A DNA stretch of 64,000 nt from a phage. Shown here one piece after another: positions 13,334 through 42,380 of this stretch; within the stretch, counting starts at the first letter, position 1, and every line of letters starts with the position of its first letter. The stretch lies in the NCBI GenBank assembly GCA_011839185.1, contig GCA_011839185.1_3918.1; one strand, written 5' to 3'. A model generated the notes under the pieces. The model saw only the letters and a program-made list of their open reading frames with translations. It was not told the DNA's origin and searched no databases. The translations under genes and the position numbers were made by a program.

Positions 13334-15700
13334 ATGCGCATGGTAAATGACCACGCAGAAGTGATTAAGAGTTCAACTTCTTTAGAGACGTCTCAAGCAC
13401 AGATTACAATGACACCTGAGATGTTCAGCCTTTTGAGTTCTGGTGTATATACCTTTAAAGAAAGGGCAGTGATTCGTGAACTGTCATGTAACGCAGTAGA
13501 TGCTCAGAAAGAAGCTGGAAAAGAGAACATTCCGTTCCATGTGCATTTACCTACTCGTTTTGAGCCTTACTTTGAAGTTCGTGATTTTGGAACTGGATTG
13601 ACTCATGATAAAGTTATGAGTTTGTACCTAAACTACGGGGCTTCTACGAAGAATGACTCTAATGACTACATTGGTGCAATGGGTATCGGCTCAAAATCCC
13701 CATTTGCAATTGCTCAGTCATTCACAGTATCTAGCTATGTTGATGGTGTTGTTAATAAGTACTCTGTTTATCTTGAGAATGGTATCCCTCAAGTAACTAA
13801 GCTGACCACTAACCCAACAAAAGAACCCAATGGTTTAGCTGTACGTGTGGCAGTTGCTGACCACCGTATCTCAAAGTTCTTTGAAGAAGCTGGAAATGTG
13901 TACTCATACTTCACTGTAAAACCAGAAAGTAATATTGAGTACGACGATGTATTAGCAGATATGAACGTCATTGCCCGTGAAGAAGGTGTTTATGATGCCA
14001 TGATTCATAAGCAAAGCTGGCGTTCTAGTGGTAACAGGACAGAGTTTAATGTGGTGATGGGTAATATTGCCTATCCAGTGAACATGGAAGCATTACTTGG
14101 TGATGATTTCTTCAAAGTCTTGCCAGAGTTTTTCCGTAGGAGCGTAGACCTTGTAAACATCTACATGCCTATTGGTTCAGTTGCTATAGCAGCTTCTCGT
14201 GAAGCATTGCAGATGAATGATACGACAAAAAATGTTATCATCGAGGCTACCAAAAAGATAACTGAAGCAATTACAAAGGATGTTATCAAGAAAGTTAATA
14301 GCCAACCTACACTCATGGATGCTGCACAGGCTTATGCAGAGTTACGTTTGAACTCACGAGAGATGTTTAATGCTGTGTGTCCAAAGCTAGAGTGGGGAGG
14401 CGTTAAGCTTGATTCTCTGGAAGAAGAATTGTTAAACATTCGTCGTGGAATTATCTACGCAGAAGACGGCTCAGTCATTTATGAACGTGACGGTAAAGGC
14501 AATATTAAGGTTGATAGGAACGGGAACAATATCCCTAAAGTAGATTATCTTTATAACCCAGTTGCTTATGTCAAGTTCAACTCTTTAGAGAGTAAGATTC
14601 GTGCAACAGCACTTTCCTACACTCAAGAGGCAAGTATGTTCAATATCTTTGGCGCAATGCGTAAAAGCCAAATTGAACAGTTTTTGTTCGTGATTAATGA
14701 CCGTCGCAATAAAAATGGTACTGAGAAGACTGTAGGCCGCAATCAGATTCTGCGTGGTGCATGTCGAGACTACGCCAGTGAGTCAAGTCTGTTTCACAGA
14801 TATAATGGTATTGTGTTTGTATTCTCGACTGAAAAAGAGTTAGACGACCTAATCAACCTACACAAACTTGATAAAAGCTTGTTAAAGATTGTGAAGATGT
14901 CTGATAAGGAACATCACTATCAGCGTAAAGAAGCTGTAAGAGGTGTTGTAAAACTCTGGAAAGCTGTTCCAGCAGAAGGTGTAGCTTCCTATAAAGAGGT
15001 TTCAGAGGACTTAGATACGATTGAAGAGCCTCAGCTTTATATTAAGGCAGTAGGCGACACAGTTGATGGCGAATGTTTTTGCTCATCTCCAGAAGATGTA
15101 GCTAAGTCAGTTGCCAATGTCATTGGAAAGAAAGTATATGTTTTCCGAAAAGCAAATTGGAAAAAGATACCAGAAGACTGGATTGAAGTAGATGAGAAGC
15201 TCTTGAATGACAGCTTAACTGATGTTCACTGGATTAACCATAACAGGTATATGACACGTATCTATATGAATGGTGTCCTTGACCTTACAAGCAGTTGGAT
15301 TATTGCCAGAAACTTTACGTTCAATAACAGGAAGATTTCTCGTGGCTATTGTTATTCGCGGGATACAAACAAAACTATCTTCTTAGAAGGTAATGAAGAT
15401 GCTGTAGAGGCAATGTTTGGTAAAATCCAATACGTTGCTGCACCATTTGCATACACTTACATTATTAGTGTGTTGCAAGATTTGAAAAGGTGTCTTGATA
15501 ATGATACAAAGCTTTACAAGAAAATTAAGAAAGCTGGTGACCGCATGGTCATTAAGGTGACAAACTACCTTTCAAAAAGAAAACAAGAAAACTTCTTGCT
15601 TTCTCATTTAGATTGGAATAAAGTGTCACCCATCGAAGTGAGTAAGTTCTTAGGCTTTGATGTGAAGTGTGTTCCAGAAGGGACTACAATTTACGATTAA
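13334..15700 (+). CDS. rIIA: rIIA-like protein with GHKL-type ATPase N-terminal domain
   Basis: 788 aa; ELSCNAVDA, DFGTG and GAMGIGSKS motifs of a histidine-kinase-like ATPase fold; followed by an rIIB-sized gene. Confidence 0.7.
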   Translation: MRMVNDHAEVIKSSTSLETSQAQITMTPEMFSLLSSGVYTFKERAVIRELSCNAVDAQKEAGKENIPFHVHLPTRFEPYFEVRDFGTGLTHDKVMSLYLNYGASTKNDSNDYIGAMGIGSKSPFAIAQSFTVSSYVDGVVNKYSVYLENGIPQVTKLTTNPTKEPNGLAVRVAVADHRISKFFEEAGNVYSYFTVKPESNIEYDDVLADMNVIAREEGVYDAMIHKQSWRSSGNRTEFNVVMGNIAYPVNMEALLGDDFFKVLPEFFRRSVDLVNIYMPIGSVAIAASREALQMNDTTKNVIIEATKKITEAITKDVIKKVNSQPTLMDAAQAYAELRLNSREMFNAVCPKLEWGGVKLDSLEEELLNIRRGIIYAEDGSVIYERDGKGNIKVDRNGNNIPKVDYLYNPVAYVKFNSLESKIRATALSYTQEASMFNIFGAMRKSQIEQFLFVINDRRNKNGTEKTVGRNQILRGACRDYASESSLFHRYNGIVFVFSTEKELDDLINLHKLDKSLLKIVKMSDKEHHYQRKEAVRGVVKLWKAVPAEGVASYKEVSEDLDTIEEPQLYIKAVGDTVDGECFCSSPEDVAKSVANVIGKKVYVFRKANWKKIPEDWIEVDEKLLNDSLTDVHWINHNRYMTRIYMNGVLDLTSSWIIARNFTFNNRKISRGYCYSRDTNKTIFLEGNEDAVEAMFGKIQYVAAPFAYTYIISVLQDLKRCLDNDTKLYKKIKKAGDRMVIKVTNYLSKRKQENFLLSHLDWNKVSPIEVSKFLGFDVKCVPEGTTIYD

Positions 15701-21931: not shown

Positions 21932-21967
21932 TTTACAAGGGGCTTATAGTTCGATAGAGTAAGCCCC
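21932..21967 (+). promoter_or_regulatory. type-I cassette: promoter embedded in a hairpin
   Basis: TTTACA, 17-nt spacer, TAGAGT; the spacer and -10 lie inside the inverted repeat GGGGCTTA...TAAGCCCC; followed by the conserved UTR CAGATAAAGAGCTTTAC...GGAGATTCTAAAATG. Confidence 0.5.
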
Positions 21968-22012
21968 AGATAAAGAGCTTTACTAACTAACCTTAAACTA
22001 GGAGATTCTAAA

Positions 22013-22393
22013 ATGGCTTATCGTGCACCGAAATTCATCAACAAAGACAACTTTCGCAACGTACTGGAGAAGGCACTTGATGAAAAATTTAAAGGTAACA
22101 TTATTATTGTTCACTCATTCAATTTTAAGTATGACATCAACGGGAATAAAATCAACCATTACACGGCAACAATGATAGACGGTACGTTATCAAGTGAAAA
22201 AGCCGTACTGAATGCACTTGCTGGACGTGGTAAAAACCTGATAAGCTGCAATAAGAGACGTTATCAAGGTGGCGCATATGGTTATGATGATGCTGTTTAC
22301 CATCTTGAAAATATGGGCTATTCAGTGGAGAAAGCTGGAGCGTCTCAAATAATTGGTAGTGATGGTTATGTGACAATATTCAAAATTAACTGA
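22013..22393 (+). CDS. small early protein
   Basis: 126 aa behind a type-I cassette. Confidence 0.55.
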   Translation: MAYRAPKFINKDNFRNVLEKALDEKFKGNIIIVHSFNFKYDINGNKINHYTATMIDGTLSSEKAVLNALAGRGKNLISCNKRRYQGGAYGYDDAVYHLENMGYSVEKAGASQIIGSDGYVTIFKIN

Positions 22394-22401
22394 TAAAGTA
22401 C

Positions 22402-22437
22402 TTTACAAGGGGCTTATAGTTCGATAAAGTAAGCCCC
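22402..22437 (+). promoter_or_regulatory. type-I cassette promoter/hairpin
   Basis: near-identical copy of the 21932 cassette (TTTACA, 17 nt, ATAAAG/TAAAGT). Confidence 0.5.
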
Positions 22438-22481
22438 AGATAAAGAGCTTTACCACTCAATCCTAAATTGGAGATTCTAAA

Positions 22482-22772
22482 ATGGCTATTATCAAAAACG
22501 TTGTAATTCCTGCAAAAACTCGTGATGACGCTCGCATCATGGCGAAAAAGTTAGGCGGGAAAGTGGTTGACAATGGAAAACAATCTGCTGTAAGATGGGG
22601 CGTAAAGGCTGATAAACAGTTGAAGCTAAAAAATTCACCGATAAACCTTTTTACATGTGTAAGCACTATCGGGAAGACAAATGTATACACGAAAAAGGCA
22701 TATATTAGACGCATAACCTTAACATCCCCCATTCGTACAATGAGAAGTTATGCAAAGCTGAAAATTAACTGA
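22482..22772 (+). CDS. small early protein
   Basis: 96 aa behind a type-I cassette. Confidence 0.5.
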   Translation: MAIIKNVVIPAKTRDDARIMAKKLGGKVVDNGKQSAVRWGVKADKQLKLKNSPINLFTCVSTIGKTNVYTKKAYIRRITLTSPIRTMRSYAKLKIN

Positions 22773-22780
22773 TAAAGTAC

Positions 22781-22816
22781 TTTACAGGGGGCTTAAAAGT
22801 TGATATCTTAAGCCCC
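22781..22816 (+). promoter_or_regulatory. type-I cassette promoter/hairpin
   Basis: TTTACA, 17 nt, TATCTT inside GGGGGCTTAAAAG...CTTAAGCCCC. Confidence 0.5.
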
Positions 22817-22860
22817 AGATAAAGAGCTTTACCACTAAATCCTAAACTGGAGATTCAAAA

Positions 22861-23157
22861 ATGAAACTATCAAATAAAGTCCGTGAAAATCTAAGCAAGT
22901 TACTTAATAAAATTGATTTCATTGAAACATCAAGGAATAGTCATGATGTTATGGAATGGTTACACGGAAAAATCAAAGGCCGTCGTGTAGTGATTTGCTT
23001 ATGGAATAGTTGCAGGGAGTATAAAAAACCTGTATTGCAAGTCAATATTTACGATGATACTTTTAAAAGCCCTGTAAAGTCTAAAAGCGATTTATTAGAA
23101 TCTTATGAGATAACTGTAAGTGGCAAAGTATCACGTAAAGAGGAAACACCATGTTAA
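22861..23157 (+). CDS. small early protein
   Basis: 98 aa behind a type-I cassette. Confidence 0.55.
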   Translation: MKLSNKVRENLSKLLNKIDFIETSRNSHDVMEWLHGKIKGRRVVICLWNSCREYKKPVLQVNIYDDTFKSPVKSKSDLLESYEITVSGKVSRKEETPC

Positions 23158-23483
23158 TGACTGGTATCACTGCAATCATTGCCATTTTCGCGCTATATAA
23201 GGCATATAAAGCCTATAATCTAGCAAATAAGGCAATCACACAGCAGGTTAGCAATAACCTTGTAGAAAGCTTTCTAGGACGTCTCAGTGATGAGCAAATA
23301 AAGCGGCTAGAGATGAGCTTCAGATATAAAGCCAAAACCTATCAGATAAGTGACATCTTCAAAGATGATTTTCAGTTAGTTGATGATTATAATTCTCTGA
23401 TAAATGCTTTAAACATCAGTGACTTGAAAGGCTATCATGCTGTAATTGTTCAAGAGTTGAGCAAACGAAAACAAAATTCTTGA
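23151..23483 (+). CDS. small membrane-anchored protein
   Basis: 110 aa; hydrophobic N-terminus; start overlaps the upstream stop. Confidence 0.45.
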   Translation: MLMTGITAIIAIFALYKAYKAYNLANKAITQQVSNNLVESFLGRLSDEQIKRLEMSFRYKAKTYQISDIFKDDFQLVDDYNSLINALNISDLKGYHAVIVQELSKRKQNS

Positions 23484-23538
23484 CACTGGTTTTTAGATAG
23501 ATTAAATTACACATCAACGGGGAGGGGATGACCTTCCC
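23479..23538 (+). promoter_or_regulatory. type-II cassette: promoter plus 5'-UTR hairpin
   Basis: TTGACA, 17 nt, TAAATT, then hairpin GGGGAGGGGATGACCTTCCCC and the conserved RBS GGAGAATCTAAAATG. Confidence 0.55.
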
Positions 23539-23571
23539 CACTAAATAAAGTCCTAAACTGGAGAATCTAAA

Positions 23572-23844
23572 ATGTATGCTACTAACAATGGTCGCACTTT
23601 AAATGTCACACTACGTCACTATGTAGATGGTGTCATGCACTTTGAAGATTTACAAGCTGAGCAACATATCTTAGATTGGCAAGTCGCAGGACTCCAAAAA
23701 ACTGCTACGGGATACGGTAAAAAGATTCCAACCAGTTGGAAAGTACACTACGAAGGACGTTTGCGCAGAATTTATCAGGATGTGCAAAGCAATAGTGCAT
23801 CGAGTTACATTATAGTAAAAGGTAAAAAACTGCATTTAGTGTAA
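23572..23844 (+). CDS. small early protein
   Basis: 90 aa behind a type-II cassette. Confidence 0.55.
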   Translation: MYATNNGRTLNVTLRHYVDGVMHFEDLQAEQHILDWQVAGLQKTATGYGKKIPTSWKVHYEGRLRRIYQDVQSNSASSYIIVKGKKLHLV

Positions 23845-23849
23845 AGTAC

Positions 23850-23885
23850 TTTACAGGGGGTTATCAAGCTGATAAGATAGCCCCA
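23850..23885 (+). promoter_or_regulatory. type-I cassette promoter/hairpin
   Basis: TTTACA, 17 nt, TAAGAT inside GGGGGTTATC...GATAGCCCC. Confidence 0.5.
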
Positions 23886-23928
23886 GATAAAGAGCTTTAC
23901 CACTCAATCCTAAATTGGAGATTCTAAA

Positions 23929-24333
23929 ATGACTATTAATAACCGTGAATTATCAATCTTAAAAGCACGTTTGACCGTCAACCGGATTAATGTTCTGACA
24001 TCATCAGCGCCTGATGAAACATTGCACAACATTATCGGAAAGATTCAAAGCGTTATTTTAGACGTTGAAAACGTAAAAAGCTCATTGGCTGACGTTGCAG
24101 CAGGTATCACGCTAGACGGTGCGCAATATGAAATGGCTGACATGTTAGGCAAATCGAAGGTAATGAATAAAGAGCTTGATTTAAAAATGTTTCGATTTGC
24201 CGTGAAAGTATGGCTATCCGTCGAGTATGACGCTAATTTTGCAATCGCTGATTTCTTCGCCACTTGGTTACAACGTAATTTGGCAAATCATGACTTTCGT
24301 GACATCTGCGACGCAATTTATGCAGAACTCTAA
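23929..24333 (+). CDS. small early protein
   Basis: 134 aa behind a type-I cassette. Confidence 0.55.
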   Translation: MTINNRELSILKARLTVNRINVLTSSAPDETLHNIIGKIQSVILDVENVKSSLADVAAGITLDGAQYEMADMLGKSKVMNKELDLKMFRFAVKVWLSVEYDANFAIADFFATWLQRNLANHDFRDICDAIYAEL

Positions 24334-24341
24334 AAATTTTA

Positions 24342-24401
24342 TTGACACTGGTTTTTAGATAGATTAAATTACACATCAACGGGGAGGGAATGACCTTCCC
24401 C
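24342..24401 (+). promoter_or_regulatory. type-II cassette: promoter plus 5'-UTR hairpin
   Basis: TTGACA (24342-24347), 17 nt, TAAATT (24365-24370), hairpin GGGGAGGGAATGACCTTCCCC (24381-24401). Confidence 0.55.
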
Positions 24402-24433
24402 ACTAAATAAAGTCCTAAACTGGAGAATCTAAA

Positions 24434-24637
24434 ATGGCTATTATTAACGGCTTACACATTGAAACAACTCACATCAAAGATATTAAAGTTGGTGATGTAG
24501 TCCTTTCCCACGGCGTAGAGAAAACTGTCACTGCAAAGGATATCAAAGAGGACTCTTTCATGGGTAGGACTCTCTTCGGTGATTCTTATTGCTTAGGTTA
24601 TCTTGCAGTTTTAAAAGTTGTCAAAAATAACAAATAA
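24434..24637 (+). CDS. small early protein
   Basis: 67 aa behind a type-II cassette. Confidence 0.5.
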   Translation: MAIINGLHIETTHIKDIKVGDVVLSHGVEKTVTAKDIKEDSFMGRTLFGDSYCLGYLAVLKVVKNNK

Positions 24638-24642
24638 AGTAC

Positions 24643-24680
24643 TTTACAGGGGGCTTGGAAGTTGATATCTTAAGCCCCAG
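24643..24680 (+). promoter_or_regulatory. type-I cassette promoter/hairpin
   Basis: TTTACA then GGGGGCTTGGAAGTTGATATCTTAAGCCCC. Confidence 0.45.
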
Positions 24681-24724
24681 ATAAAGAGCTTTATCACTCA
24701 ATCCTTAAACTAGGAGATTCAAAA

Positions 24725-25267
24725 ATGAAATGCTATCACGGAACTACTCAAGAAAATTTCCTCAACCTGATTAATAACGGTGATAAACCATCAGGCGCAT
24801 GGAATTGTTCGGATATGGACGGCAATTTTTACGTGTATCCAGAAAATAAAATCTATGGCGACGATGAGGAAGAGATAACATCAGAAGGCATCCAGCAAGC
24901 TCTAGGCAATGCCACTATCACCGCAGCTTTTCAGATGAAGACTCAAAATATTGTTATCTTAGAACTCGATATTCCAGAGGATGAGCTGAATGACGATTAT
25001 TCTTGTGATAATATGTCGAGTGTAGCAAGTTTTACAGAGTACTTTGATGTAAATTGGATTAAAAAGGTCTATACAACAGAGTTTAACGCTATGTATTCAC
25101 CTTTTTGTCTTCCTTCATTGGATAACCCAAATTTAAACTATCTTGATGAGTCTCTGGAGCTTCTTGCTAAAAGTGTCCAACAGTCGGACAGTATTCAGGT
25201 TTTTTGTGACATCATGGATACACTGACAGGGAACATTGCAGAAGAGGATTTAAAGAGCTTTTTCTAA
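24725..25267 (+). CDS. hypothetical acidic protein
   Basis: 180 aa behind a type-I cassette. Confidence 0.55.
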   Translation: MKCYHGTTQENFLNLINNGDKPSGAWNCSDMDGNFYVYPENKIYGDDEEEITSEGIQQALGNATITAAFQMKTQNIVILELDIPEDELNDDYSCDNMSSVASFTEYFDVNWIKKVYTTEFNAMYSPFCLPSLDNPNLNYLDESLELLAKSVQQSDSIQVFCDIMDTLTGNIAEEDLKSFF

Positions 25268-25300
25268 AAACCTATGCAATCACCTTATAAACACTAATTA

Positions 25301-25320
25301 GCCCCTTGTAGGGGCTTTTA
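25301..25320 (+). terminator. terminator-like hairpin
   Basis: GCCCC-TTGTA-GGGGC followed by TTTTA. Confidence 0.5.
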
Positions 25321-25333
25321 GAGGACTTAAATC

Positions 25334-25567
25334 ATGCTTACAACCATTTATCTCATCCTTTCCATTTGTAACGGCCATTCATGCGATTTTAAAGGGCTTG
25401 AGGAGTTCACAGGAAGTAAAGAAAATGCCATTCAAGTTTGTCAGATAGCAAGGCAAGACTATCCCGCCAGTGATGACATACAATGCTACTTTAAGACAGA
25501 AGATGAAGAAGGCATTTATTTTGATAGTGTTGACGGTCAATATGAAATTATCATTGAAAAAGACTAG
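25334..25567 (+). CDS. small protein with N-terminal hydrophobic segment
   Basis: ORF track 77 aa. Confidence 0.45.
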   Translation: MLTTIYLILSICNGHSCDFKGLEEFTGSKENAIQVCQIARQDYPASDDIQCYFKTEDEEGIYFDSVDGQYEIIIEKD

Positions 25568-25603
25568 ACAAGCCTGATAAAAGCTTGTAGAGTGTCAATC
25601 AAC

Positions 25604-25624
25604 GGGGAGGGAATAACCTTCCCC
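25604..25624 (+). promoter_or_regulatory. type-II cassette 5'-UTR hairpin
   Basis: GGGGAGGGAATAACCTTCCCC followed by the conserved RBS context. Confidence 0.45.
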
Positions 25625-25658
25625 ACTAAATAAAGTCCTTAAACTAGGAGATTCTAAA

Positions 25659-25907
25659 ATGTATACTAAAACGCAACTTAAAAGCATGGTTAACAATGGT
25701 TTAATGGATGAAGTCTACAAAGAATGTAGACGCTATGGAAAAATCATGGATAAGTCTAGTTATGAGTATACTCACACAATAGATTTCAAAACTAATGAAA
25801 AACGAACTGACTTTATCACTGTGATAGTTATTGAATATAAATGCTTACTGTGGACTTTTGAGCTAGTAAAGGGTGAGTGTATAGAAATCGAATACAAAGA
25901 CGCTTAA
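25659..25907 (+). CDS. small early protein
   Basis: 82 aa behind a type-II hairpin. Confidence 0.5.
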   Translation: MYTKTQLKSMVNNGLMDEVYKECRRYGKIMDKSSYEYTHTIDFKTNEKRTDFITVIVIEYKCLLWTFELVKGECIEIEYKDA

Positions 25908-25913
25908 AAGTAC

Positions 25914-25950
25914 TTTACAGGGGGCTTAAAAGTTGGTATCTTAAGCCCCA
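25914..25950 (+). promoter_or_regulatory. type-I cassette promoter/hairpin
   Basis: TTTACA then GGGGGCTTAAAAGTTGGTATCTTAAGCCCC. Confidence 0.45.
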
Positions 25951-25993
25951 GATAAAGAGCTTTACCACTAAATCCTAAACTGGAGATTCAAAA

Positions 25994-26335
25994 ATGGCTT
26001 ATGTAACTGTAATTACCGATAAAGAGAATTCATCTTGGTCAACTCAGGTTAGTGATAAGATGTCACCTATGCAGTGCCTAAAATACTTTGAGCAGTGGAA
26101 CAAAGGCGAGGATGTAAGCCCCTTTCAGGTAATGCAAATCATCCATACAGATAACGAAGGGAATAAAACGACACTGAATAGTGAGTACTATGCAAGCCGT
26201 TTTGAAACGAGAAGTAAAACAATGAAGCTTTTACGTGAATCCGGCTATTCTCACATTGCCGCGCTAATATGGGATGACCTGCTGAAAAGCCAGCGTATCA
26301 GCTATGTAAAACCTGAAAAAATATTCATCAGTTAA
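25994..26335 (+). CDS. small early protein
   Basis: 113 aa behind a type-I cassette. Confidence 0.55.
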   Translation: MAYVTVITDKENSSWSTQVSDKMSPMQCLKYFEQWNKGEDVSPFQVMQIIHTDNEGNKTTLNSEYYASRFETRSKTMKLLRESGYSHIAALIWDDLLKSQRISYVKPEKIFIS

Positions 26336-26535
26336 TCAATAACTTATAAAAAACTTTAAAAAATTACTTGACGATACCCCTTGACAATAGTACATTTGTT
26401 CGAGGGGGTTTATCTAAAAGGGATTCACTTAAAAGATTCTTTATAGATAAACTTAAAAAATTGCTTGCAATCATCTTCCAAAAACTTTATAGTTTATCTC
26501 AAGCAATAATGCTTTCCTAAACTGGAGATTCAAAA

Positions 26536-27066
26536 ATGAACAAGTTCAAAGCTATCAACTACATTCGCTCAAATAGTGTCATGTCTAAGCCTGTTAAGGA
26601 TACCTACGAATTTCGTTGCAATGGCGAACACTTTGCTACCATCACCAAATCAAACAACGGGGCTTATTATATCCATCGTCGTAATGTTTCTACGGTTGTA
26701 GTTTCTAACTTTATGCAAGCTGTAGCGGAACTCCTCCCACTCTTCTTAGAAAAGTATGCCGTACAGTGTGAAAGTGTTCGTGAATGCACTAAAACAGTGT
26801 TAAACGGTTATCGTATGGCTTATGAGCGCTCTTTAAAGAATCTCAATAAATACTACAAAGCACCGGAAGGTACTTCATCCACAGCCTACGGGGTAGGGGG
26901 CTTCAATGTCAGCCTTTACGAAGTGGAAGAAATCGAGCTTTATGACCATCGCCCAAATGGTTACGCTAAGACACTGGGAGATGGGTTAATGCTGAATATC
27001 AAGAACTTAGAAAAAACTTTAAGAGAAATTGAAAAAGATATTGACGAGACAATCAAAAGTCTGTAA
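26536..27066 (+). CDS. hypothetical protein
   Basis: 176 aa; conserved GGAGATTCAAAAATG RBS context; promoter-like TTGAC/TTGCTT words upstream. Confidence 0.55.
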   Translation: MNKFKAINYIRSNSVMSKPVKDTYEFRCNGEHFATITKSNNGAYYIHRRNVSTVVVSNFMQAVAELLPLFLEKYAVQCESVRECTKTVLNGYRMAYERSLKNLNKYYKAPEGTSSTAYGVGGFNVSLYEVEEIELYDHRPNGYAKTLGDGLMLNIKNLEKTLREIEKDIDETIKSL

Positions 27067-27079
27067 ATTATCAATCAAC

Positions 27080-27100
27080 GGGGAGGGAATAACCTTCCCC
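27080..27100 (+). promoter_or_regulatory. type-II cassette 5'-UTR hairpin
   Basis: GGGGAGGGAATAACCTTCCCC. Confidence 0.45.
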
Positions 27101-27131
27101 ACTAAGTAAAGTCCTAAACTGGAGATTCAAA

Positions 27132-27395
27132 ATGGAACACGTAGAACTGACCACACTCTTACAAATCGCAACCGACAAGGAAGACGTAGCATTATTTCAC
27201 CGTATCGAAAGTGATTTGTTCAATGGTGAAATCATCAAAGAATCTTACGAAGTTGTCGGATTCAAAGATGGTAAAGCATTTGGCTTTTTTGACCTCGACA
27301 AAAGCAAAGCGGTTACAAAGTACGATGTTCTATCTTGTGAGATTCTTACAAAATACAACGAAAAAAGGCTTGCAACATACGCCAACATGCAGTAA
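27132..27395 (+). CDS. small early protein
   Basis: 87 aa behind a type-II hairpin. Confidence 0.5.
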   Translation: MEHVELTTLLQIATDKEDVALFHRIESDLFNGEIIKESYEVVGFKDGKAFGFFDLDKSKAVTKYDVLSCEILTKYNEKRLATYANMQ

Positions 27396-27408
27396 ATTAC
27401 TAATCAAC

Positions 27409-27427
27409 GGGGAGGGATGACCTCCCT
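27409..27427 (+). promoter_or_regulatory. type-II cassette 5'-UTR hairpin (variant)
   Basis: GGGGAGGGATGACCTCCCT. Confidence 0.4.
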
Positions 27428-27459
27428 ACTAAATAAAACCTTAAACTAGGAGATTCAAA

Positions 27460-27708
27460 ATGGCTACTATCCGCGCAACTGTTAACGAATTCGGCTTTTG
27501 CTCTCTGGATGTTAAATTTGACCTTGTAGGTACTGATAACGCCTTTGAGATGGTGAAAGGTCTTATCAGTCAAACCATCAAAGACTATAACCCTTCTGAT
27601 GAGTTCTGGAAAGAAACAAAACAGGAAGTTCTCAAAGATGGTTATTCTTATCACTATTGGGGTGAAAAAATTGTCTCCCTATACTACGACAAAGAGGGCA
27701 CTAACTAA
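27460..27708 (+). CDS. small early protein
   Basis: 82 aa; last gene of the + strand block. Confidence 0.5.
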   Translation: MATIRATVNEFGFCSLDVKFDLVGTDNAFEMVKGLISQTIKDYNPSDEFWKETKQEVLKDGYSYHYWGEKIVSLYYDKEGTN

Positions 27709-28482
27709 TCGACGCAACGGGGCTAAATAGCCCCAGATACCTTAAAAGCTCCTTCTCATAGGGGCTTTTTTACGTCTATAAAGAATCCTTTCCCTTTCCT
27801 TTCCAGAATCTACCCCACTGATTCGATAGAGTCTATCTCATACCTTAAAAAGCAATAACTCTATAGTCTATTCTATAGCCCCTTATCAAATCAACTTAAA
27901 TAAAAGCCAATAACCCCAGAAAGGGGATGGCCCATTTAAACGCTCTATAAAGCTCTATAACAGCCTTATCAACCTAACTTAAGGGATTGCATTAACCCAC
28001 TCTAAAAAGCCCTTTATAAAGCTTCCTATAGCCTTAAAAGAATCTTATAAGGTGTAAGCTTTATCATCTCGTTAGTTTCTTGTGAATATCTAAAAAGGGC
28101 TTGTTAGTGTCTTAAAAGTATGTTATAGGGGCTTAAAAGTAGCTTAAAAGCTATGTGAAAGAGGCTATAAAGTTACGTAAATGCTAGCCCCCTTAACATT
28201 TTCTTAACAATTTCTTAACAAACCCTACATAGTTATGCTTGTTAGAGACTTGTTAGCCCCTTGTTAAATCTCTGTTAAAACCACGTAAAAGGCTTGTAAG
28301 AACCTTTGGCATAGCCTTAAAAGCTCCTGTAAAGCCCTATAAAGAGCTATCCATACAGTTGAGGGGTAAATACTAGGAAGAGGCTTAAAAGAGCTTACAA
28401 GGAGCTATAGAGAGCTTTTAAGAGGCATGTTTAAGGAATCACTAAGAAAGGAAAGGGAACGATAAGGAAGAGATAGTGACCA

Positions 28483-28757
28483 TGTTAATAGCTTGTTAAA
28501 AAGATTAAACACTTGTTAGAAACTTGTTAATTATCTTAACAAAATAACCCTTTAAAATTAACTTGTTAGCTCTTGTTAGTCATCTGTTAAGATTCTGTAA
28601 AGCCTATTCAGCACTTGTTAGAAAACTGTTACAGTCTTGTTAGTTCTGTTAAGAATCTGTTAAGACCTTTGAAGAGTTGTTAAGAAGATGTAAGGACTGT
28701 TAAGAGATTGTTAAGGATATTTTAAAATTTTGCAAAGTACTTGTAAGGGAGTTGTTA
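28483..28757 (+). repeat. helically phased array of at least 16 TGTTA(A/G) words
   Basis: TGTTA at 28483, 28494, 28514, 28524, 28564, 28574, 28585, 28615, 28627, 28638, 28648, 28658, 28678, 28698, 28709, 28753; spacings are multiples of 10-11 bp. Confidence 0.65.
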
Positions 28758-29317
28758 AGGGCTACCAAGCAGATATACATCTTCTACAGATATTTTTCAG
28801 TTCCTTCAAAGACCCTAAAAAATGACTTGATAGTCCTATTTTATAAAAATTTTAAAATTCTGAATAATTACCTATACAGTCTTTTAAAAATACAGGTAGA
28901 AACAGGCTTATAAGATACCTTGTTAGTACCGTGTTAGACCTTGTGAGATAAGGTCTGTAAAGATATTACTGTTAAGTTTGTTAAAACAGTCTATATAGAG
29001 GCTTAGTATTTCCTAGTGAACATCTATAGAGAGTCACATAGCTGACATAGAGATTAAGAGGTGTATAGGAGCTTCTAAGAAGGTGTAGAGAGATGGTTAA
29101 GGTGATTGTATAGGTTGTTAAGAAGGCTTGTTAGAGGGCTTGTTAGAAGGGTTATACAGAGGGGCTATTAAGACCACTAGATAGTTACTAAGATACTATA
29201 TAGTACTATATAACTATATAGAGAGTAAGATTAAGAAGGTTGTTAAGAAGGGTAGATATTTTATTCACATATGATGGTGACCCAGAGGTTGGGACAACCG
29301 ATAAATTTTATAAAAAT

Positions 29318-29345
29318 TAAAAAGCCCCCGATTAAGGAGGCTCTT
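29318..29345 (-). terminator. terminator-like hairpin for the minus-strand block
   Basis: on the minus strand AGCCTCC-TTAATC-GGGGGCT followed by TTTTT. Confidence 0.4.
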
Positions 29346-29353
29346 AAGATATT

Positions 29354-29947
29354 TTAAATCAGTGTTTCCAGAACTGTTTTTAATGATGACTTAGTTGTCT
29401 GATAAAAATGAGTGAATCCGTTGTTGTTATCGAATATCTGCATCATGATATCATCTCCCTTGATTGGATACACTCGGATATCATAGTGAAACCCATTAAA
29501 GACAGCAGAACCATTACAGAACACACTAAAATCACTTGCTGAGATATACTCTTCATGACCTGTGATTTTTATACAGATACCCTTACTTGGTCTCTTAGGG
29601 TTGATATCCTCCATCACAGACATACTCTGTCCACCAAGAGATACCATAGTGACCACTTTACGGTTCTTCTGTTTAAAGTACATCTTAACTTTCTGCAAAG
29701 TGTCTTCATAGAACGGATAAGACTTCTCTACAAAGATTCCTTCTAATGGCTCTTTACCATTTTCAACCTCTCTGTTGTGTCGTACTGCAAAGGTAATTTG
29801 TTCGAACCAGTCAAGATTTTCTTCGGAGAGTGCTTCTCGAATATCATTCGAGTCAAGGACTAGGTAGTTACCTTCAACCTCTTTTAAGTTATCTTTTTCC
29901 ATAGCTATCACACCATTATCGTAAAACTTGGTAAGCTGGTACTGCAA
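29354..29947 (-). CDS. hypothetical protein
   Basis: ORF track 197 aa. Confidence 0.5.
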   Translation of the reverse strand: MQYQLTKFYDNGVIAMEKDNLKEVEGNYLVLDSNDIREALSEENLDWFEQITFAVRHNREVENGKEPLEGIFVEKSYPFYEDTLQKVKMYFKQKNRKVVTMVSLGGQSMSVMEDINPKRPSKGICIKITGHEEYISASDFSVFCNGSAVFNGFHYDIRVYPIKGDDIMMQIFDNNNGFTHFYQTTKSSLKTVLETLI

Positions 29948-36750: not shown

Positions 36751-36978
36751 GGCAGACCTACAGCTTTAACTAAGATGGTACAGTAATCCATACAACAAGT
36801 CAAGAACTATTGCAAGTTAAAAAAGTTGTTGACAAAGTACTTGACAAGGTGTAGGCTTATAAATACTTAGAAGATAACTTAAAAGGTTCCTCTAAAAAGG
36901 CTATTTAAACAGATATCTTTCTGGATATCTATCTTTTATCTTAAAAGCCTTTTAAGAGGTCTTATAAGAGGCATACCA
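36751..36978. promoter_or_regulatory. divergent promoter region between minus- and plus-strand blocks
   Basis: two TTGACA hexamers (36829, 36841) and TATAAAT (36858-36864) in an AT-rich intergenic region. Confidence 0.4.
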
Positions 36979-37350
36979 ATGAAAAACAGAACAAACAAAG
37001 GCCAGTTTAAAAAAGGCCAGTCTGGAAACCCATCTGGAAGACCAAAAGGCTCTCGTAACAAAAGCTCACTTGTAAAAGCTCAACTGACCATTGATAATTC
37101 TGCTGAGTTTGCTGCAAAGTTGTTTGAAGCAATTGTTACAAGGGATGCTGCTAAGCTTGCAGAGTTCGGGTTAAACACAGACGACGTAACCATCAAGAGC
37201 ATGATTGAGGTCGGTAAAACTATCATGACTCACTCAGCAGGTGAGATGAAAGCCATTGCAGCAGACACTAAGAAGACTCCTGATAATGGTGGTCAGTCTC
37301 AGACAGATAACAAACCAACGTTCTCTGCTGTAGCGACTCTTAAAAAATAA
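36979..37350 (+). CDS. hypothetical protein with basic N-terminal KGQSGNPSGRPKG motif
   Basis: ORF track 123 aa. Confidence 0.5.
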   Translation: MKNRTNKGQFKKGQSGNPSGRPKGSRNKSSLVKAQLTIDNSAEFAAKLFEAIVTRDAAKLAEFGLNTDDVTIKSMIEVGKTIMTHSAGEMKAIAADTKKTPDNGGQSQTDNKPTFSAVATLKK

Positions 37351-39011: not shown

Positions 39012-39088
39012 CTCTGTTTAGCTCAGCTTGGTAGAGCGTTCCGTTTGGGGCGGTAAGGCCGGAGGTTCAAGTCCTCCAACAGAGACCA
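39012..39088 (+). tRNA. tRNA-Pro (anticodon TGG)
   Basis: manual cloverleaf: acceptor CTCTGTT/AACAGAG, D-arm GCTCAGCTTGGTAGAGC, T-arm GGAGGTTCAAGTCCTCC, encoded CCA. Confidence 0.8.
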
Positions 39089-39095
39089 AATTAAT

Positions 39096-39173
39096 GTTCC
39101 AGTGGACAAAATGGTAAAGTCACCACTCTTTCAAAGTGGATATTTGAGGGTTCAAATCCCTTCTGGAACGCCA
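39096..39173 (+). tRNA. tRNA-Glu (anticodon TTC)
   Basis: acceptor GTTCCAG/CTGGAAC, anticodon arm CCACT-CTTTCAA-AGTGG, T-loop TTCAAAT, encoded CCA. Confidence 0.75.
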
Positions 39174-39180
39174 GTTTTGA

Positions 39181-39253
39181 CAGAAGACCAATTACAGCAA
39201 ACTTAATCTTATTCATCTGAAGGTAAATCGGACAAAGAAGAGATTTGGTCTGG
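39181..39253 (+). ncRNA. candidate structured element A (hairpin with conserved bulged closing stem)
   Basis: 5' CAGAAGACCAAT ... ATTTGGTCTGG 3'; AT-rich ~48-nt interior; one of four related elements. Confidence 0.35.
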
Positions 39254-39264
39254 TCATTAAGAAT

Positions 39265-39341
39265 TGCGGGTATAGAGAAAGGGCGTCTCACATGTCTCAT
39301 TAGCATGGTATCGGCAGGTTCGACTCCTGCACCCGCCTCCA
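39265..39341 (+). tRNA. tRNA with CAT anticodon (Met or Ile2)
   Basis: acceptor TGCGGGT/ACCCGCC with 1-72 mismatch, anticodon arm CATGT-CTCATTA-GCATG, T-arm GCAGGTTCGACTCCTGC, encoded CCA. Confidence 0.65.
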
Positions 39342-39347
39342 AATTTA

Positions 39348-39411
39348 CAGAAGACCGTTTACAGCAATATTTATTAAATTTTTAGCGGAAAAATTGAAAG
39401 ATACGGTCTGG
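39348..39411 (+). ncRNA. candidate structured element B
   Basis: 5' CAGAAGACCGTTTACAGCAA ... ACGGTCTGG 3'. Confidence 0.35.
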
Positions 39412-39424
39412 TAATACTAAACAT

Positions 39425-39501
39425 GGTTAGGAAGCACATAAGGTATGTGCGGTCGCCTGTTAAGCGAATGGCACAGGGTTCGAATCCCTGACTAACCGCC
39501 A
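39425..39501 (+). tRNA. tRNA-Asn (anticodon GTT)
   Basis: acceptor GGTTAGG/ACTAACC, D-arm GCACATAAGGTATGTGC, loop CTGTTAA, T-arm CAGGGTTCGAATCCCTG, encoded CCA. Confidence 0.75.
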
Positions 39502-39570
39502 AATTTAGGAGAGAAGCGATTGCTCACCGATTTGTAAGGTGCAAGTCCTTAGCCTGAATAGAAATCAAAT

Positions 39571-39658
39571 GTGTCGTTATCCCGTAGATGGTAGCGGTGG
39601 GGACTGTAAATCCCTTGTCATTGAGACTCGGTAGGTTCGACTCCTACACGGCACACCA
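39571..39658 (+). tRNA. tRNA-Tyr (anticodon GTA), long variable arm
   Basis: 88 nt; acceptor GTGTCGT/ACGGCAC, loop CTGTAAA, T-arm GTAGGTTCGACTCCTAC, encoded CCA. Confidence 0.75.
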
Positions 39659-39663
39659 ATAAA

Positions 39664-39741
39664 GGTTATGTAGTTTAATTTGGTTAAAATACTCCCCTGT
39701 CACGGGAGATGATGAGGGTTCAAATCCCTTCGTAACCGCCA
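39664..39741 (+). tRNA. tRNA-Asp (anticodon GTC)
   Basis: acceptor GGTTATG/CGTAACC, arm CTCCC-CTGTCAC-GGGAG, T-arm GAGGGTTCAAATCCCTT, encoded CCA. Confidence 0.8.
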
Positions 39742-39769
39742 ATTTTGAGAGGGCTATTTAGCCCCTCCC

Positions 39770-39797
39770 TTAAAGGGTTCTTACGAGTATCCTTTAA
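39770..39797 (+). promoter_or_regulatory. conserved hairpin with GTTCTTACGAG loop (copy 1 of 4)
   Basis: TTAAAGG-GTTCTTACGAGTAT-CCTTTAA. Confidence 0.4.
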
Positions 39798-39802
39798 AGG
39801 AG

Positions 39803-39876
39803 CAGAAGACCAAATACAGCAAGTTACTTAAAATTTCAAGCCAATTTAATTTTGAAAAATTTAAAACTTGGTCTGG
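39803..39876 (+). ncRNA. candidate structured element C
   Basis: 5' CAGAAGACCAAATACAGCAA ... CTTGGTCTGG 3'. Confidence 0.35.
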
Positions 39877-39889
39877 CTCAACAAATTTA

Positions 39890-40020
39890 CAGAAGACCGT
39901 TTACAGCAAAACTTAAACAATCTATTTCTCGGTAAAGAAAAGGCGAAGGTTCGATTCCTTCACTCGGCAGATGTCGAGTTGGTGTAATGGTAGCACTTAA
40001 GATGATAAACAACGGTCTGG
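39890..40020 (+). ncRNA. candidate structured ncRNA D: closing stem as A-C, enclosing a permuted tRNA-like module
   Basis: CAGAAGACCGTT ... AACGGTCTGG; inside in order: T-arm GAAGGTTCGATTCCTTC, 7-bp acceptor-like hairpin ACTCGGC-AGAT-GTCGAGT, D-arm GTGTAATGGTAGCAC. Confidence 0.45.
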
Positions 40021-40021
40021 T

Positions 40022-40165
40022 AATTATCTTTGTAGATAAGTTATTAAGCTTACCTGTGAGTATGCGACCACAAAGGGTGAAAGGGTAAATTCTAGATTTA
40101 AACCTAAAAAGGCACATCGCTACAGACCTTAAGCAAGTCTGGGTAGCTTATCTACAAAGATAATT
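40022..40165 (+). repeat. long inverted repeat (19-bp perfect arms) enclosing about 106 nt
   Basis: AATTATCTTTGTAGATAAG (40022-40040) and its exact reverse complement (40147-40165). Confidence 0.6.
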
Positions 40166-40169
40166 TAAT

Positions 40170-40245
40170 GGAAGTGTAGCAGAATGGTGATGCGGCAGAC
40201 TTTTAATCTGACAGGCGATGGGTTCGAATCCCTCCACTTCTACCA
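40170..40245 (+). tRNA. tRNA-Lys (anticodon TTT)
   Basis: acceptor GGAAGTG/CACTTCT, loop CTTTTAA, T-loop TTCGAAT, encoded CCA; T-stem imperfect in my parse. Confidence 0.65.
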
Positions 40246-40323
40246 AATTCACCCTTAACTGAGAAACACCTGCGCGGCTGGAAACACCCACTCAACAGTT
40301 TCTCTAACTAGGGTACTTATTCT

Positions 40324-40400
40324 GGTTCAGTCGCAGATAAGGTAATGCAAGGGTCTCATAAGCCCTATGAATGTGGGTTCGATTCCCATCTGAACCTCCA
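40324..40400 (+). tRNA. tRNA with CAT anticodon (Met, fMet or Ile2)
   Basis: acceptor GGTTCAG/CTGAACC, anticodon stem with three G-C pairs (AGGGT/GCCCT), loop CTCATAA, T-arm GTGGGTTCGATTCCCAT, encoded CCA. Confidence 0.7.
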
Positions 40401-40416
40401 ATTCGTTGGTGATATT

Positions 40417-40902
40417 ATGTTTTGTGCTAATAAAGATTGTGACAACAAAGCCGTTAAAGGTGGAAAGTATTGTTCACGCTCTTGTGCTGCAAGGGTAAAC
40501 AACAAGAGTCATCCAAAAAGAAGACAAGAAGGCTCTTGTCATTCATGTGGAAAGCAGACACCAAAATCAAGAAAGTATTGTGATGAATGTATTTCAAATG
40601 GTATTCTGAAACAATACAAAAACCCCGATGAAGAAAAGAAAGCGAAGTCACAACACGTTAAAAAGTCTCGTGACAAACTTAAGAGGGTTTTAGTTGATTA
40701 CAAAGGTGGTTGTTGCTCAATTTGTGGATACAATAAGTGCATAAAGGCTTTAGAGTTTCACCACTTAGACCCTAATACAAAGGACTTCACAGTAGGACAA
40801 AAACACTTCTCTATAGAGGTAATGAAGTCTGAAGTTGATAAGTGTGTATTACTGTGTGCAAATTGCCACAGAGAGGTACACGAAGGGGTAACAAAGCTGT
40901 GA
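40417..40902 (+). CDS. HNH homing-endonuclease-like protein with N-terminal zinc ribbons (start trimmed past the tRNA)
   Basis: C-terminal EFHHLDP...LLCANCHREVH HNH motif; several CxxC pairs; ORF-track start 40345 lies inside the tRNA. Confidence 0.65.
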   Translation: MFCANKDCDNKAVKGGKYCSRSCAARVNNKSHPKRRQEGSCHSCGKQTPKSRKYCDECISNGILKQYKNPDEEKKAKSQHVKKSRDKLKRVLVDYKGGCCSICGYNKCIKALEFHHLDPNTKDFTVGQKHFSIEVMKSEVDKCVLLCANCHREVHEGVTKL

Positions 40903-40971
40903 AAGCACATATGGATGTGCATTCGGCTGATAACCGAAAGGCAGAAGGTTCGAATCCTTCTCACAGTACCA
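40896..40971 (+). tRNA. tRNA-Ile (anticodon GAT)
   Basis: acceptor GCTGTGA/TCACAGT, D-arm GCACATATGGATGTGC, arm TTCGG-CTGATAA-CCGAA, T-arm GAAGGTTCGAATCCTTC, encoded CCA; first 7 nt overlap the HNH stop codon. Confidence 0.75.
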
Positions 40972-40986
40972 ATTTCAATAAAGTTG

Positions 40987-41015
40987 TTGACATTGAGATG
41001 TGACTACTTTATAGT
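40987..41015 (+). promoter_or_regulatory. sigma70-like promoter inside the tRNA array
   Basis: TTGACA, 17-nt spacer, TATAGT. Confidence 0.55.
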
Positions 41016-41182
41016 AACCTTAGTTTTCGTTGCGTAGCGTCTATTTTGCAAATTTAAAATAAATGCAAACGACAATGTTTTTCTGGCAGTAGCTTGATAG
41101 GCTAAACACCAGTGAGGTCTTCCAATCCCTCATCAAAGAATTTGGCGTACTCGCCCACGGTATGATTAATAAGGTGGGCATC

Positions 41183-41210
41183 TTTAAGGGCTTTCTAAGA
41201 GAGTCTTTAA
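41183..41210 (+). promoter_or_regulatory. conserved hairpin-motif variant (copy 2 of 4)
   Basis: GGCTTTCTAAGAGAGTCTTTAAAG, about 10 nt upstream of tRNA-Arg. Confidence 0.3.
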
Positions 41211-41218
41211 AGATTAAT

Positions 41219-41295
41219 GCACCCTTAGTTCAACTGGACAGAGCAAATGACTTCTAATCATTGAGTTACAGGTTCGAATCCTGTAGGGTGTGCCA
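41219..41295 (+). tRNA. tRNA-Arg (anticodon TCT)
   Basis: acceptor GCACCCT/AGGGTGT, arm AATGA-CTTCTAA-TCATT, T-arm ACAGGTTCGAATCCTGT, encoded CCA. Confidence 0.8.
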
Positions 41296-41437
41296 ATTAG
41301 TTAGCAGATTACTTAGACGACCTTATCGGGTCTCCGTGTAAGGAGGTGGTCTGTATCTCATGTTTTCCAGAACATGTAAATAATCTGAGAAGGGGCTTTA
41401 CAGTGTTGAGATAACAGGGTAAGCTTCGAATTATAGT

Positions 41438-41520
41438 ATGGGACGATGTTAAGACTCTAAGGCATGAGCAACGGCTTCCAACACCGTTTCAAAGGGGTTC
41501 AACTCCTCCGTCCCATGCCA
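41438..41520 (+). tRNA. atypical tRNA-like gene, anticodon CCA (Trp-type), about 7 extra nt between acceptor and D-arm
   Basis: 3' two-thirds parse canonically (arm ACGGC-TTCCAAC-ACCGT, T-loop TTCAACT, acceptor GTCCCAT, CCA) but the complementary 5' acceptor sits 7 nt too far upstream. Confidence 0.3.
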
Positions 41521-41533
41521 AAGTCTTATTAGG

Positions 41534-41621
41534 GGTAGGTAGCGGCTAATGGTAGCCAAACTGTCTTGAAAACAGTTGCCACTGTAGAGATACGGTGAGG
41601 GTTCGACTCCTTTACTTACCG
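41534..41621 (+). tRNA. tRNA-Ser (anticodon TGA), long variable arm
   Basis: 88 nt; acceptor GGTAGGT/ACTTACC, 3-bp D-stem, arm ACTGT-CTTGAAA-ACAGT, T-loop TTCGACT; no encoded CCA. Confidence 0.65.
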
Positions 41622-41843
41622 CCTAATAAGATTTAAAGCCAAGCTTCATTCGGATGTTGCTTTGGTATCCCTCGTGTATTGTCGTACACACTGATAAAGC
41701 ACCTAGTAGGTGTCACGGAGAAGAGATAATATCAAGCTCTCCAAAGGTTCTAGTCACCGGATTAAACAAGACTATGCAAAGACCTATTTAGGTCTTTTTA
41801 GAGGGCTTCTAAGGTTATTACAGCTTGTTGTGGAACCTTGTTG

Positions 41844-41868
41844 CTTAGGTTCTTAGAAGTTCTCTAAA
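41844..41868 (+). promoter_or_regulatory. conserved hairpin-motif variant (copy 3 of 4)
   Basis: TTAGGTTCTTAGAAGTTCTCTAA, about 10 nt upstream of a tRNA. Confidence 0.3.
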
Positions 41869-41878
41869 AAGATTTAAT

Positions 41879-41955
41879 GCACCTATAGCCCAACTGGTAG
41901 AGGCAGCAGACTTAGAATCTGCTCAGTGTGAGTTCGAATCTCTCTAGGTGTACCA
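41879..41955 (+). tRNA. tRNA with Leu anticodon TAG, class-I-length variable loop
   Basis: perfect anticodon stem GCAGA/TCTGC with loop CTTAGAA; Leu-like D-loop AACTGGTAGA; discriminator A; 5-nt variable loop. Confidence 0.6.
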
Positions 41956-41962
41956 AATTAAT

Positions 41963-42038
41963 GCAGGTGTAGCAAAATGGTTATGCGGCTGACTCTTAAT
42001 CAGTAAGACGATGGGTTCAATTCCCTCCACCTGTACCA
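41963..42038 (+). tRNA. tRNA-Lys (anticodon CTT)
   Basis: acceptor GCAGGTG/CACCTGT, loop CTCTTAA, T-loop TTCAATT, encoded CCA. Confidence 0.65.
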
Positions 42039-42044
42039 AACATT

Positions 42045-42120: not shown

Positions 42121-42125
42121 ATTAG

Positions 42126-42201: not shown

Positions 42202-42208
42202 AATTAAT

Positions 42209-42284: not shown

Positions 42285-42287
42285 ATT

Positions 42288-42376: not shown

Positions 42377-42380
42377 TCAT

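Follow-up and report, generated by a model that had tools for sequence, protein, structure and literature searches.

The open-reading-frame-free gap of a Felixounavirus genome carries the direct terminal repeat and phased arrays of candidate packaging sites

T7 is the model for phages in which the virion DNA carries a short, exact direct terminal repeat (DTR) at each end: every concatemer junction holds one repeat, both of its boundaries are cut by the terminase, and packaging is accompanied by duplication of the repeat. In lambda (cosB R sites), P1 (pac hexamers) and SPP1 (pacL/pacR), multiple short repeats flank the terminase cut site; these systems make cohesive ends or headful cuts and use 3-7 sites with known binding proteins. 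Among the Felix O1-like myoviruses (Ounavirinae), DTRs have been reported for UAB_Phi87, Ro111lw (613 bp), vB_EcoM-Pr103Blw, vB_EcoM_D4 and the Kolesnikvirus SPARTY (439 bp). This published work covers the length and existence of the repeat only, and the Felix O1 genome paper, which does not discuss the region treated here, deduced 'short terminal repeats' from genome size alone. Here we analyse a 64,000-nucleotide stretch of phage DNA (GenBank assembly GCA_011839185.1, contig GCA_011839185.1_3918.1; hereafter the window), whose source is a Felixounavirus, a Felix O1-like myovirus, and in it a gap of 1.6 kb without substantial open reading frames (ORFs) at positions 27709-29353. For this gap the first-pass annotation had proposed a replication origin with iteron-like sites, a packaging or partition-type protein-binding array, the physical genome terminus or decayed promoter cassettes, and had favoured none of the four. 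We conclude, with a probability of roughly 0.8, that the gap is a concatemer junction made up of the DTR together with cis-acting packaging and cleavage signals. That the genome terminus lies here is essentially established, and for the genus it has already been published.

The physical genome terminus is the proposal that the relatives confirm, as genomes with mapped ends start and end inside the gap, at the window equivalents of 28187 and 28766. The record of Pr103Blw carries a 581-bp 'short direct terminal repeat' annotated at both of its ends, which aligns to window positions 28187-28766, and the first 581 nt of this record equal the last 581 nt exactly. The Pr103Blw repeat was derived with PhageTerm (PMC8303462), and D4, from a separate laboratory (PMC11737134), shows a 581-bp duplication that is likewise exact and agrees in its first and last bases; both genomes begin GCCCCCTTAACA and finish TGTTAAGGGCTACC. 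Other records break at or near the same places: that of SPJ41 starts or ends at the left DTR boundary and that of GE_vB_7A at most 6 nt from it, and those of NJ12 and EcSzw_1 end no more than about 10 nt from the right boundary. Wet-lab mapping comes from UAB_Phi87, in which two SpeI fragments were lost on time-limited digestion with Bal31, the DTR measured 608 bp by run-off sequencing and cos ends were excluded by a heat test (PMC4837284). In the UAB_Phi87 record, 614 bp separate the two boundary motifs, compared with the 608 bp measured; the record version used is not opened at the ends and therefore serves for a comparison of DTR length only. The record of the Erwinia phage Roscha1 (Kolesnikvirus) starts 1 nt from the aligned left boundary and its box AAGCAGATATACA begins at position 439, giving a boundary-to-boundary distance of 438 bp against the 439 bp published for SPARTY. 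Across the records of the relatives, the ends are fixed, non-permuted and at conserved sequence positions, and in Pr103Blw and D4 identical sequence stands at both record ends; the window has one copy, as expected of a collapsed assembly. By homology to these relatives, the virion DNA of this phage is predicted to start at 28187 and end at 28766, with the two DTR copies collapsed into one in the window. A further record, that of mistaenkt (MN850587), is broken within CTATAAAGTTACGTAAAAG units, some 40 nt to the left of the DTR boundary, and its first 43 nt equal its last 43 nt; this duplication is an assembly overlap, and the break is not a physical end. The apparent fourfold CTATAAAGTTACGTAAAAG repeat in mistaenkt was dropped, as the 43-nt overlap is duplicated when the record ends are joined.

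The gap lies between converging gene blocks, as the first-pass annotation had stated: the last + strand ORF before it ends at 27708, the first - strand ORF after it runs from 29354 to 29947, and the two blocks end in convergent terminators. The claim that no ORF of 60 amino acids or more occurs across 1.6 kb holds with exact coordinates, the longest ORF of the gap measuring 53 amino acids (28752-28913). Gap sequence is matched at 75-93% identity in 255-292 phage records, nearly all of them from Felix O1-like myoviruses (255 Felix O1-like records at 80-93%), and the region is therefore not the assembly artefact that had been considered. The gaps of 12 genomes were aligned: those of seven Felixounavirus, counting the window, two each of Suspvirus and Mooglevirus and a single Kolesnikvirus. 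They have no ORF of 40 amino acids or longer in common, and the gaps of Felix O1 and ASO1A contain no such ORF at all. The 'hypothetical proteins' annotated in the gap by a few records are for this reason spurious. In Felix O1, the counterpart of the gap (12306-13927) lies unannotated between the convergent ORF23 and ORF24. A full-length Felixounavirus gap, at 87% identity, is also present at 135357-137078 of GenBank GU169904 (Staphylococcus phage SA1, 147 kb), a record that is probably chimeric or contaminated.

The features of the gap from left to right, followed by the large terminase gene, are as follows, with the basis of each in brackets.

27719-27739, + strand: GGGGC-TAAATA-GCCCC hairpin and then AGATA, the final copy of an early-gene cassette, here without a promoter (GCCCCAGATA match and cassette alignment).
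27747-27771, + strand: Rho-independent terminator of the + early block, stem AGCTCCT/AGGGGCT with a T-run (read from the sequence).
27774-28186, + strand: left sub-terminal array, which in the virion lies just inside the right-end DTR copy (word positions).
28187-28766, no strand: DTR of the virion DNA, 580 bp (homology to mapped relatives).
28190-28222, - strand: three reversed 11-bp units CTTAACAnnnn, from 3 nt inside the left end (period-11 tandem repeat).
28237-28282, + strand: four forward CTTGTTAR units at exact 11-bp spacing (repeat and word positions; units gained and lost between genomes).
28300-28440, + strand: cluster of CTTAAAAG, CTGTAAAG, CTATAAAG and CTATAGAG words within the DTR (10, 11 and 21 bp apart).
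28480-28762, + strand: main array with some 20 yTGTTAR sites, its final TGTTAAGGG stopping 5 nt short of the right cut (spacings of 9-11, 20, 22 and 33 bp).
28767-28779, + strand: conserved box AAGCAGATATACA adjoining the right DTR boundary on its outer side (no variation in Felixounavirus, Suspvirus, Mooglevirus and Kolesnikvirus).
28780-28900, no strand: AT-rich spacer with 25-31% GC, array words nearly absent (conserved 0.88-0.94).
28901-29260, + strand: right sub-terminal array, which in the virion lies just inside the left-end DTR copy (word and repeat positions).
29320-29345, - strand: Rho-independent terminator of the - block, 10-pair stem and T-run (terminator scan; annotated in ASO1A and Maleficent).
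45236-46837, + strand: large terminase subunit, the expected cutter at the DTR boundaries, acting in trans (Pfam Terminase_6N 2e-43 and Terminase_6C 4e-33; PHROG 979).

The gap is built from short words repeated many times, as had been noticed at the outset. The + strand carries 28 copies of TGTTA[AG] and the - strand 4, compared with an expected 1.8 +/- 1.3 and a maximum of 7 in first-order Markov resamples of the gap; the density of this word is 17 per kb as opposed to about 1 per kb elsewhere, and every other 400-bp stretch of the 64 kb holds at most 3. Other words are enriched as well: CTTGTTAG is found 11 times, always on the + strand, and in the remaining 62 kb once on the + strand and three times on the - strand, CTTAAAAG is found 7 times, TGTTAAG 10 times and TGTTAGA 6 times, and CT[TA][AT]AAAG occurs 13 times where 0.8 are expected. 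Nearest-neighbour spacings between word sites are 11 bp in 12 of 34 cases, followed by 20, 22 and 33 bp, and the periodicity of the sites up to 120 bp is best at 10.25 bp (R=0.56, compared with 0.085 +/- 0.05 in jittered controls), so that the sites face one side of the helix.

Furthermore, the words are under stronger constraint than both the spacers between them and the neighbouring genes. Across 11 genomes, the six core positions of the DTR array are 0.96 conserved and the spacers 0.85 (p=1e-8), and in the 28300-28440 cluster the corresponding values are 0.92 and 0.80 (p=0.002). Many DTR-array sites are retained in 10 of 10 genomes and in Roscha1, and the differences between genomes are often the gain or loss of whole 11-bp units. 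Across genera, identity reaches 78-85% over the gap compared with 54-67% over the flanking coding sequence, and for the left sub-terminal array the figures are 78-85% compared with 54-65% over the adjacent coding sequence. The gap of Roscha1, to which the BLAST alignment from the window covers only about 8% of the region, contains 17 TGTTA[AG] words where 1.4 are expected, at 11- or 20-bp spacings, with reversed copies that lie 17 and 28 nt in from its left end; in its left flank the repeated word is instead TTCTAAR, with 11 copies. In 105 unrelated viral contigs with the 14-base box, taken as a control, the 650 nt upstream hold 0-2 TGTTA[AG] words, whereas in 15 Ounavirinae contigs they hold 12-22; the 14-base-box scan of IMG/VR returned mostly chance matches and is used as a negative control only. 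We found no description of phased arrays, inverted end motifs or boundary boxes in searchable papers, and the PhageMaP paper on Bas63 holds no data on this intergenic region.

At the boundaries of the repeat, CCCTTAACA is set in from the left end by 3 nt and TGTTAAGGG from the right end by 5 nt, and the edges of the DTR are therefore inverted copies of each other. The reversed units at 28190-28222 form the inverted repeats I1/I2 with 28688-28761 and are conserved in four genera, with one additional 11-bp unit in Heid. Outside the left end, the left sub-terminal array carries CTTAAAAG/CTATAAAG-class words, and its terminal unit, CTATAAAGTTACGTAAATGCTA, abuts the cut site and is conserved in 11 genomes. 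The box AAGCAGATATACA outside the right end occurs once in the window and follows the right boundary in every aligned genome, and is a candidate cleavage or recognition site. Beyond the AT-rich spacer, in which promoter-like matches are not above chance, the right sub-terminal array combines TGTTAG/TGTTAAG, TTAAGA and CTATAGAG/CTATATAG words.

Together with about 450-550 bp on each side, the DTR makes up a single block that is free of ORFs and shielded by convergent terminators. The homologue of the terminator at 27747-27771 is annotated as such in ASO1A (TranstermHP and WebGeSTer) and in Maleficent; a simple terminator scan of the window sequence did not list it. Both flanks share 8-mers with the DTR in direct orientation (z=4.5 on the left and z=7.7 on the right). 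The GC skew of the + strand changes from -0.3 to -0.5 on the left (27700-28050) to +0.4 to +0.8 on the right (29000-29300), where the right sub-terminal array is G-rich on this strand, and the sub-terminal DNA is therefore G-rich when read inward 5'->3' from either virion end. The idea that the flanks are inverted copies of each other was dropped, since the right flank and the reverse complement of the left one share no more 8-mers than expected by chance (z=0.7), despite the skew flip.

Two palindromic elements were observed in these gaps. The element GATTCGATAGAGTCTATC lies within the left sub-terminal array at 27820-27837, as a single copy in the window, and is found elsewhere in L014 (1551-1568), L013 (1585-1602), L012 (3059-3076, - strand) and L009 (1423-1440), at varied positions and orientations among phage gaps, as if moving as a unit. 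A second palindromic insertion, the 24-nt TTAATTGGTATTGTTACCAATCCC, is present at window-equivalent positions in heid (~28625), L27 (~27936), SUSP2 (~27926 and ~28564) and mistaenkt (~27894), and is absent from the whole window with 2 mismatches allowed.

Compared with the DTRs of UAB_Phi87, Ro111lw, Pr103Blw, D4 and SPARTY, the present one occupies the same locus and convergent-block position and has the same boundary sequences, and nothing about it is different in kind. The likeness to T7 is one of architecture. The T7 sequence places a 160-bp terminal repeat in an ORF-free stretch, with 13 CCTAAAG words inside and beside it, many of them at 13-bp spacing, and both phages accordingly combine a short exact DTR in an ORF-free stretch with regularly spaced words of one orientation inside the repeat and in both flanks. 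In the gap, TGTTA[AG] extends over the DTR and the right flank in this T7-like layout, and CTWWAAAG over the left flank and the DTR; in addition, the DNA polymerase and primase-helicase of Felix O1 are T7-like. However, the arrays of the two phages have no sequence homology, the spacing is 13 bp in T7 and 10-11 bp here, and the DTR measures 160 bp in T7 and 580 bp here. T7 also has an RNA polymerase of its own, junction-flanking promoters and the small terminase gp18, none of which was found in this phage, and the large terminase here is of a T4-like Pfam type (Terminase_6). The resemblance to T7 is best taken as analogy and not as membership. With lambda cosB, P1 pac and SPP1, the locus shares repeats that flank the cut, but it has an exact DTR and about 35 sites, and their helical phasing would imply cooperative binding and bending.

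The phasing of the words, the conservation of their cores and their position at the cut sites suggest that the arrays are terminase recognition sites. Of the first-pass proposals for the words, a packaging-type protein-binding array is thus the one that fits best, the sites being phased, one-stranded and conserved in their cores with less conserved spacers, although the binding itself is inferred. On the T7 paradigm, replication would produce head-to-tail concatemers with one DTR at each junction. A recognition factor, either a putative small-terminase equivalent or the terminase itself, would assemble cooperatively on the phased yTGTTAR array, which would in turn recruit and orient the packaging enzyme. 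The large terminase would cut or nick at two fixed boundaries, the cuts being positioned by the inverted CCCTTAACA/TGTTAAGGG copies 3-5 nt inside each end, with ...GTTACGTAAATGCTA on the left and AAGCAGATATACA on the right as boundary marks on the outside; strand-displacement synthesis would then duplicate the DTR to give two copies per genome. We infer the link between this large terminase and the gap. The left-flank words are genus-specific, with CTWWAAAG in Felixounavirus, Suspvirus and Mooglevirus and TTCTAAR in Kolesnikvirus, and a second factor may bind the CTWWAAAG class. We tentatively propose, at somewhat less than even odds, that the phased yTGTTAR array common to four Ounavirinae genera, located within and next to the repeat, is the assembly platform for a DNA-recognition component of packaging in phages that lack a recognisable small terminase, and that the genus-specific flank words bind a second, co-evolving specificity factor.

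Several points weigh against reading the gap as a terminus with packaging signals. The end coordinates are transferred from relatives that are 88-93% identical to this phage, most published DTR calls were made with PhageTerm and wet-lab mapping is confined to UAB_Phi87, for which the 608 bp measured and the 614 bp of the record disagree. Neither a small terminase subunit nor another DNA-binding protein was recognised with Pfam and PHROGs among the ORFs adjoining the gap and around the large terminase, and the literature does not recognise a small subunit either (PMC4837284). No protein is known to bind the array words, and comparable array units may be individually dispensable or redundant. 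The large terminase is of the T4-like Pfam type, which is usually associated with headful packaging, and the T7 mechanism may therefore not transfer in detail. Directly upstream of the large terminase gene, which starts with ATG at 45236 after GGAGG, lies a 66-amino-acid acidic ORF (45014-45214, + strand; PHROG 4397, function unassigned), and the Bas63 record opens on its homologue. By position this ORF is a candidate packaging accessory protein, but a typical small terminase would be larger and less acidic.

The features that point to packaging were also weighed against other functions. If the arrays were replication-origin iterons, whether by themselves or in a region shared with the terminus, an initiator would bind them and melt the AT-rich DNA at 28780-28900. 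The repeats are indeed direct, one-stranded, helically phased and adjacent to a stretch of 25-31% GC, which they have in common with lambda ori and plasmid iterons, and the secondary origins of T7 are located close to its terminal repeats. Nevertheless, we consider an origin unlikely, and the iteron-like origin of the first-pass annotation gains no specific support, as no initiator-like gene lies nearby, the flanking proteins have no Pfam match and fall only into PHROGs of unknown function, and no similarity could be detected between the + side gene nearest the terminus and its counterpart in Roscha1, even though the words are conserved. The single DnaA box, TTATNCACA, is at chance level, and the change in GC skew coincides with the change in gene strand. 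Moreover, the arrays span 1 kb, far beyond typical iteron sets, and straddle the mapped cut sites, with sites over more than 1 kb bracketing the mapped ends. Phasing and core conservation do not in themselves specify the binder, however, and the words could instead bind a protein other than the terminase, for example a nucleoid-type protein of phage or host that serves in protection of the linear ends from RecBCD, in end pairing and concatemer formation or in silencing of the junction. The PhageMaP authors remark that Bas63 has no RecBCD inhibitor, and a regulator is hinted at by the CTTAAAAG-class words that recur in the early cassettes and the divergent promoter region near 36.9 kb. We regard such a binder as rather unlikely, given that the TGTTAR sites are confined to the terminus region and are set in by 3-5 nt from each cut, a symmetrical arrangement that links them to the formation of the ends.

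That the gap encodes one or more non-coding RNAs is very improbable. Folding z-scores of -2.0 to -2.9 and a + strand hairpin with a T-run at 29287-29299 would be in line with an RNA, but both DTR strands fold about equally, as inverted repeats at the DNA level predict, and the hairpin is not conserved in Suspvirus or Mooglevirus. No Rfam match was obtained in the 27-30 kb region (best sub-threshold E=0.39), sigma-70 promoter-like sites number 7 where 7.8 are expected, and the variation between genomes takes the form of 11-bp unit indels and not of compensatory changes. A promoter candidate at 28827, TTGATA...TAAAAT, was rejected for its 20-nt spacer and its lack of conservation in Mooglevirus. 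Equally hard to credit is a gap made of decayed early-promoter cassettes or functionless spacer. Fragments resembling the early-gene cassette had been reported and do exist at the left edge, where the hairpin and GCCCCAGATA at 27719-27739 make up a truncated, seventh copy, and CTTAAAAG-type words occur in the cassettes. Decay can thus describe this left-edge hairpin but not the bulk of the gap, whose conservation exceeds that of the adjacent genes in three genera and whose architecture persists in a fourth; the TGTTAR sites, for their part, are absent from the cassettes.

The early-gene cassette itself is intergenic and occupies seven + strand sites between 21963 and 27739, with the layout AAAGTACTTTACA-GGGGCTTA...TAAGCCCC-AGATAAAGAGCTTTACCACT...GGAGATTC..ATG. 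It reads as a sigma-70-like TTTACA-N17-TAnnnT promoter in which the spacer and the -10 element form a hairpin with a 9-bp stem; this hairpin may serve as a terminator, as a site of RNA processing or as a regulator site. The word GCCCCAGATA occurs 7 times, always on the + strand, at 21963-27730 (1.9 expected), with six cassettes at 21.9-26 kb and the seventh at the edge of the gap. The divergent intergenic region at 36850-36980 contains CTTAAAAG twice as well as CTTTTAAGAGG and CTTATAAGAGG, which are of the same class as the left-flank words, and has CTTTTAAGAGGCAT in common with 28415-28428; the words common to this region and the gap may be the site of a common regulator. Elsewhere in the window, 26 tRNA genes are clustered on the + strand at 39012-44791, with an HNH homing-endonuclease ORF (40345-40902) embedded among them.

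The identity of the gap as the Felixounavirus terminal repeat and genome ends is already known, because it has been published and annotated for close relatives, and the value of the present analysis as a discovery is limited by the published repeat and by an architecture that parallels T7. The phased word arrays shared across genera, the inverted end motifs and the boundary boxes, for which searchable papers yielded no description, constitute a modest, testable extension. In practical terms, ends at 28187 and 28766 tell annotators how to open and orient this genome, from whose true length about 580 bp are missing, and they explain the conserved blank 'gap' in the Felix O1 reference and in other inspected records that are not opened at the ends. 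The arrays provide a handle on DNA self-recognition in phages that are widely used in therapy and diagnostics, with relevance for phage engineering, for packaging-competent cosmid-like vectors and for judging the risk of transduction.

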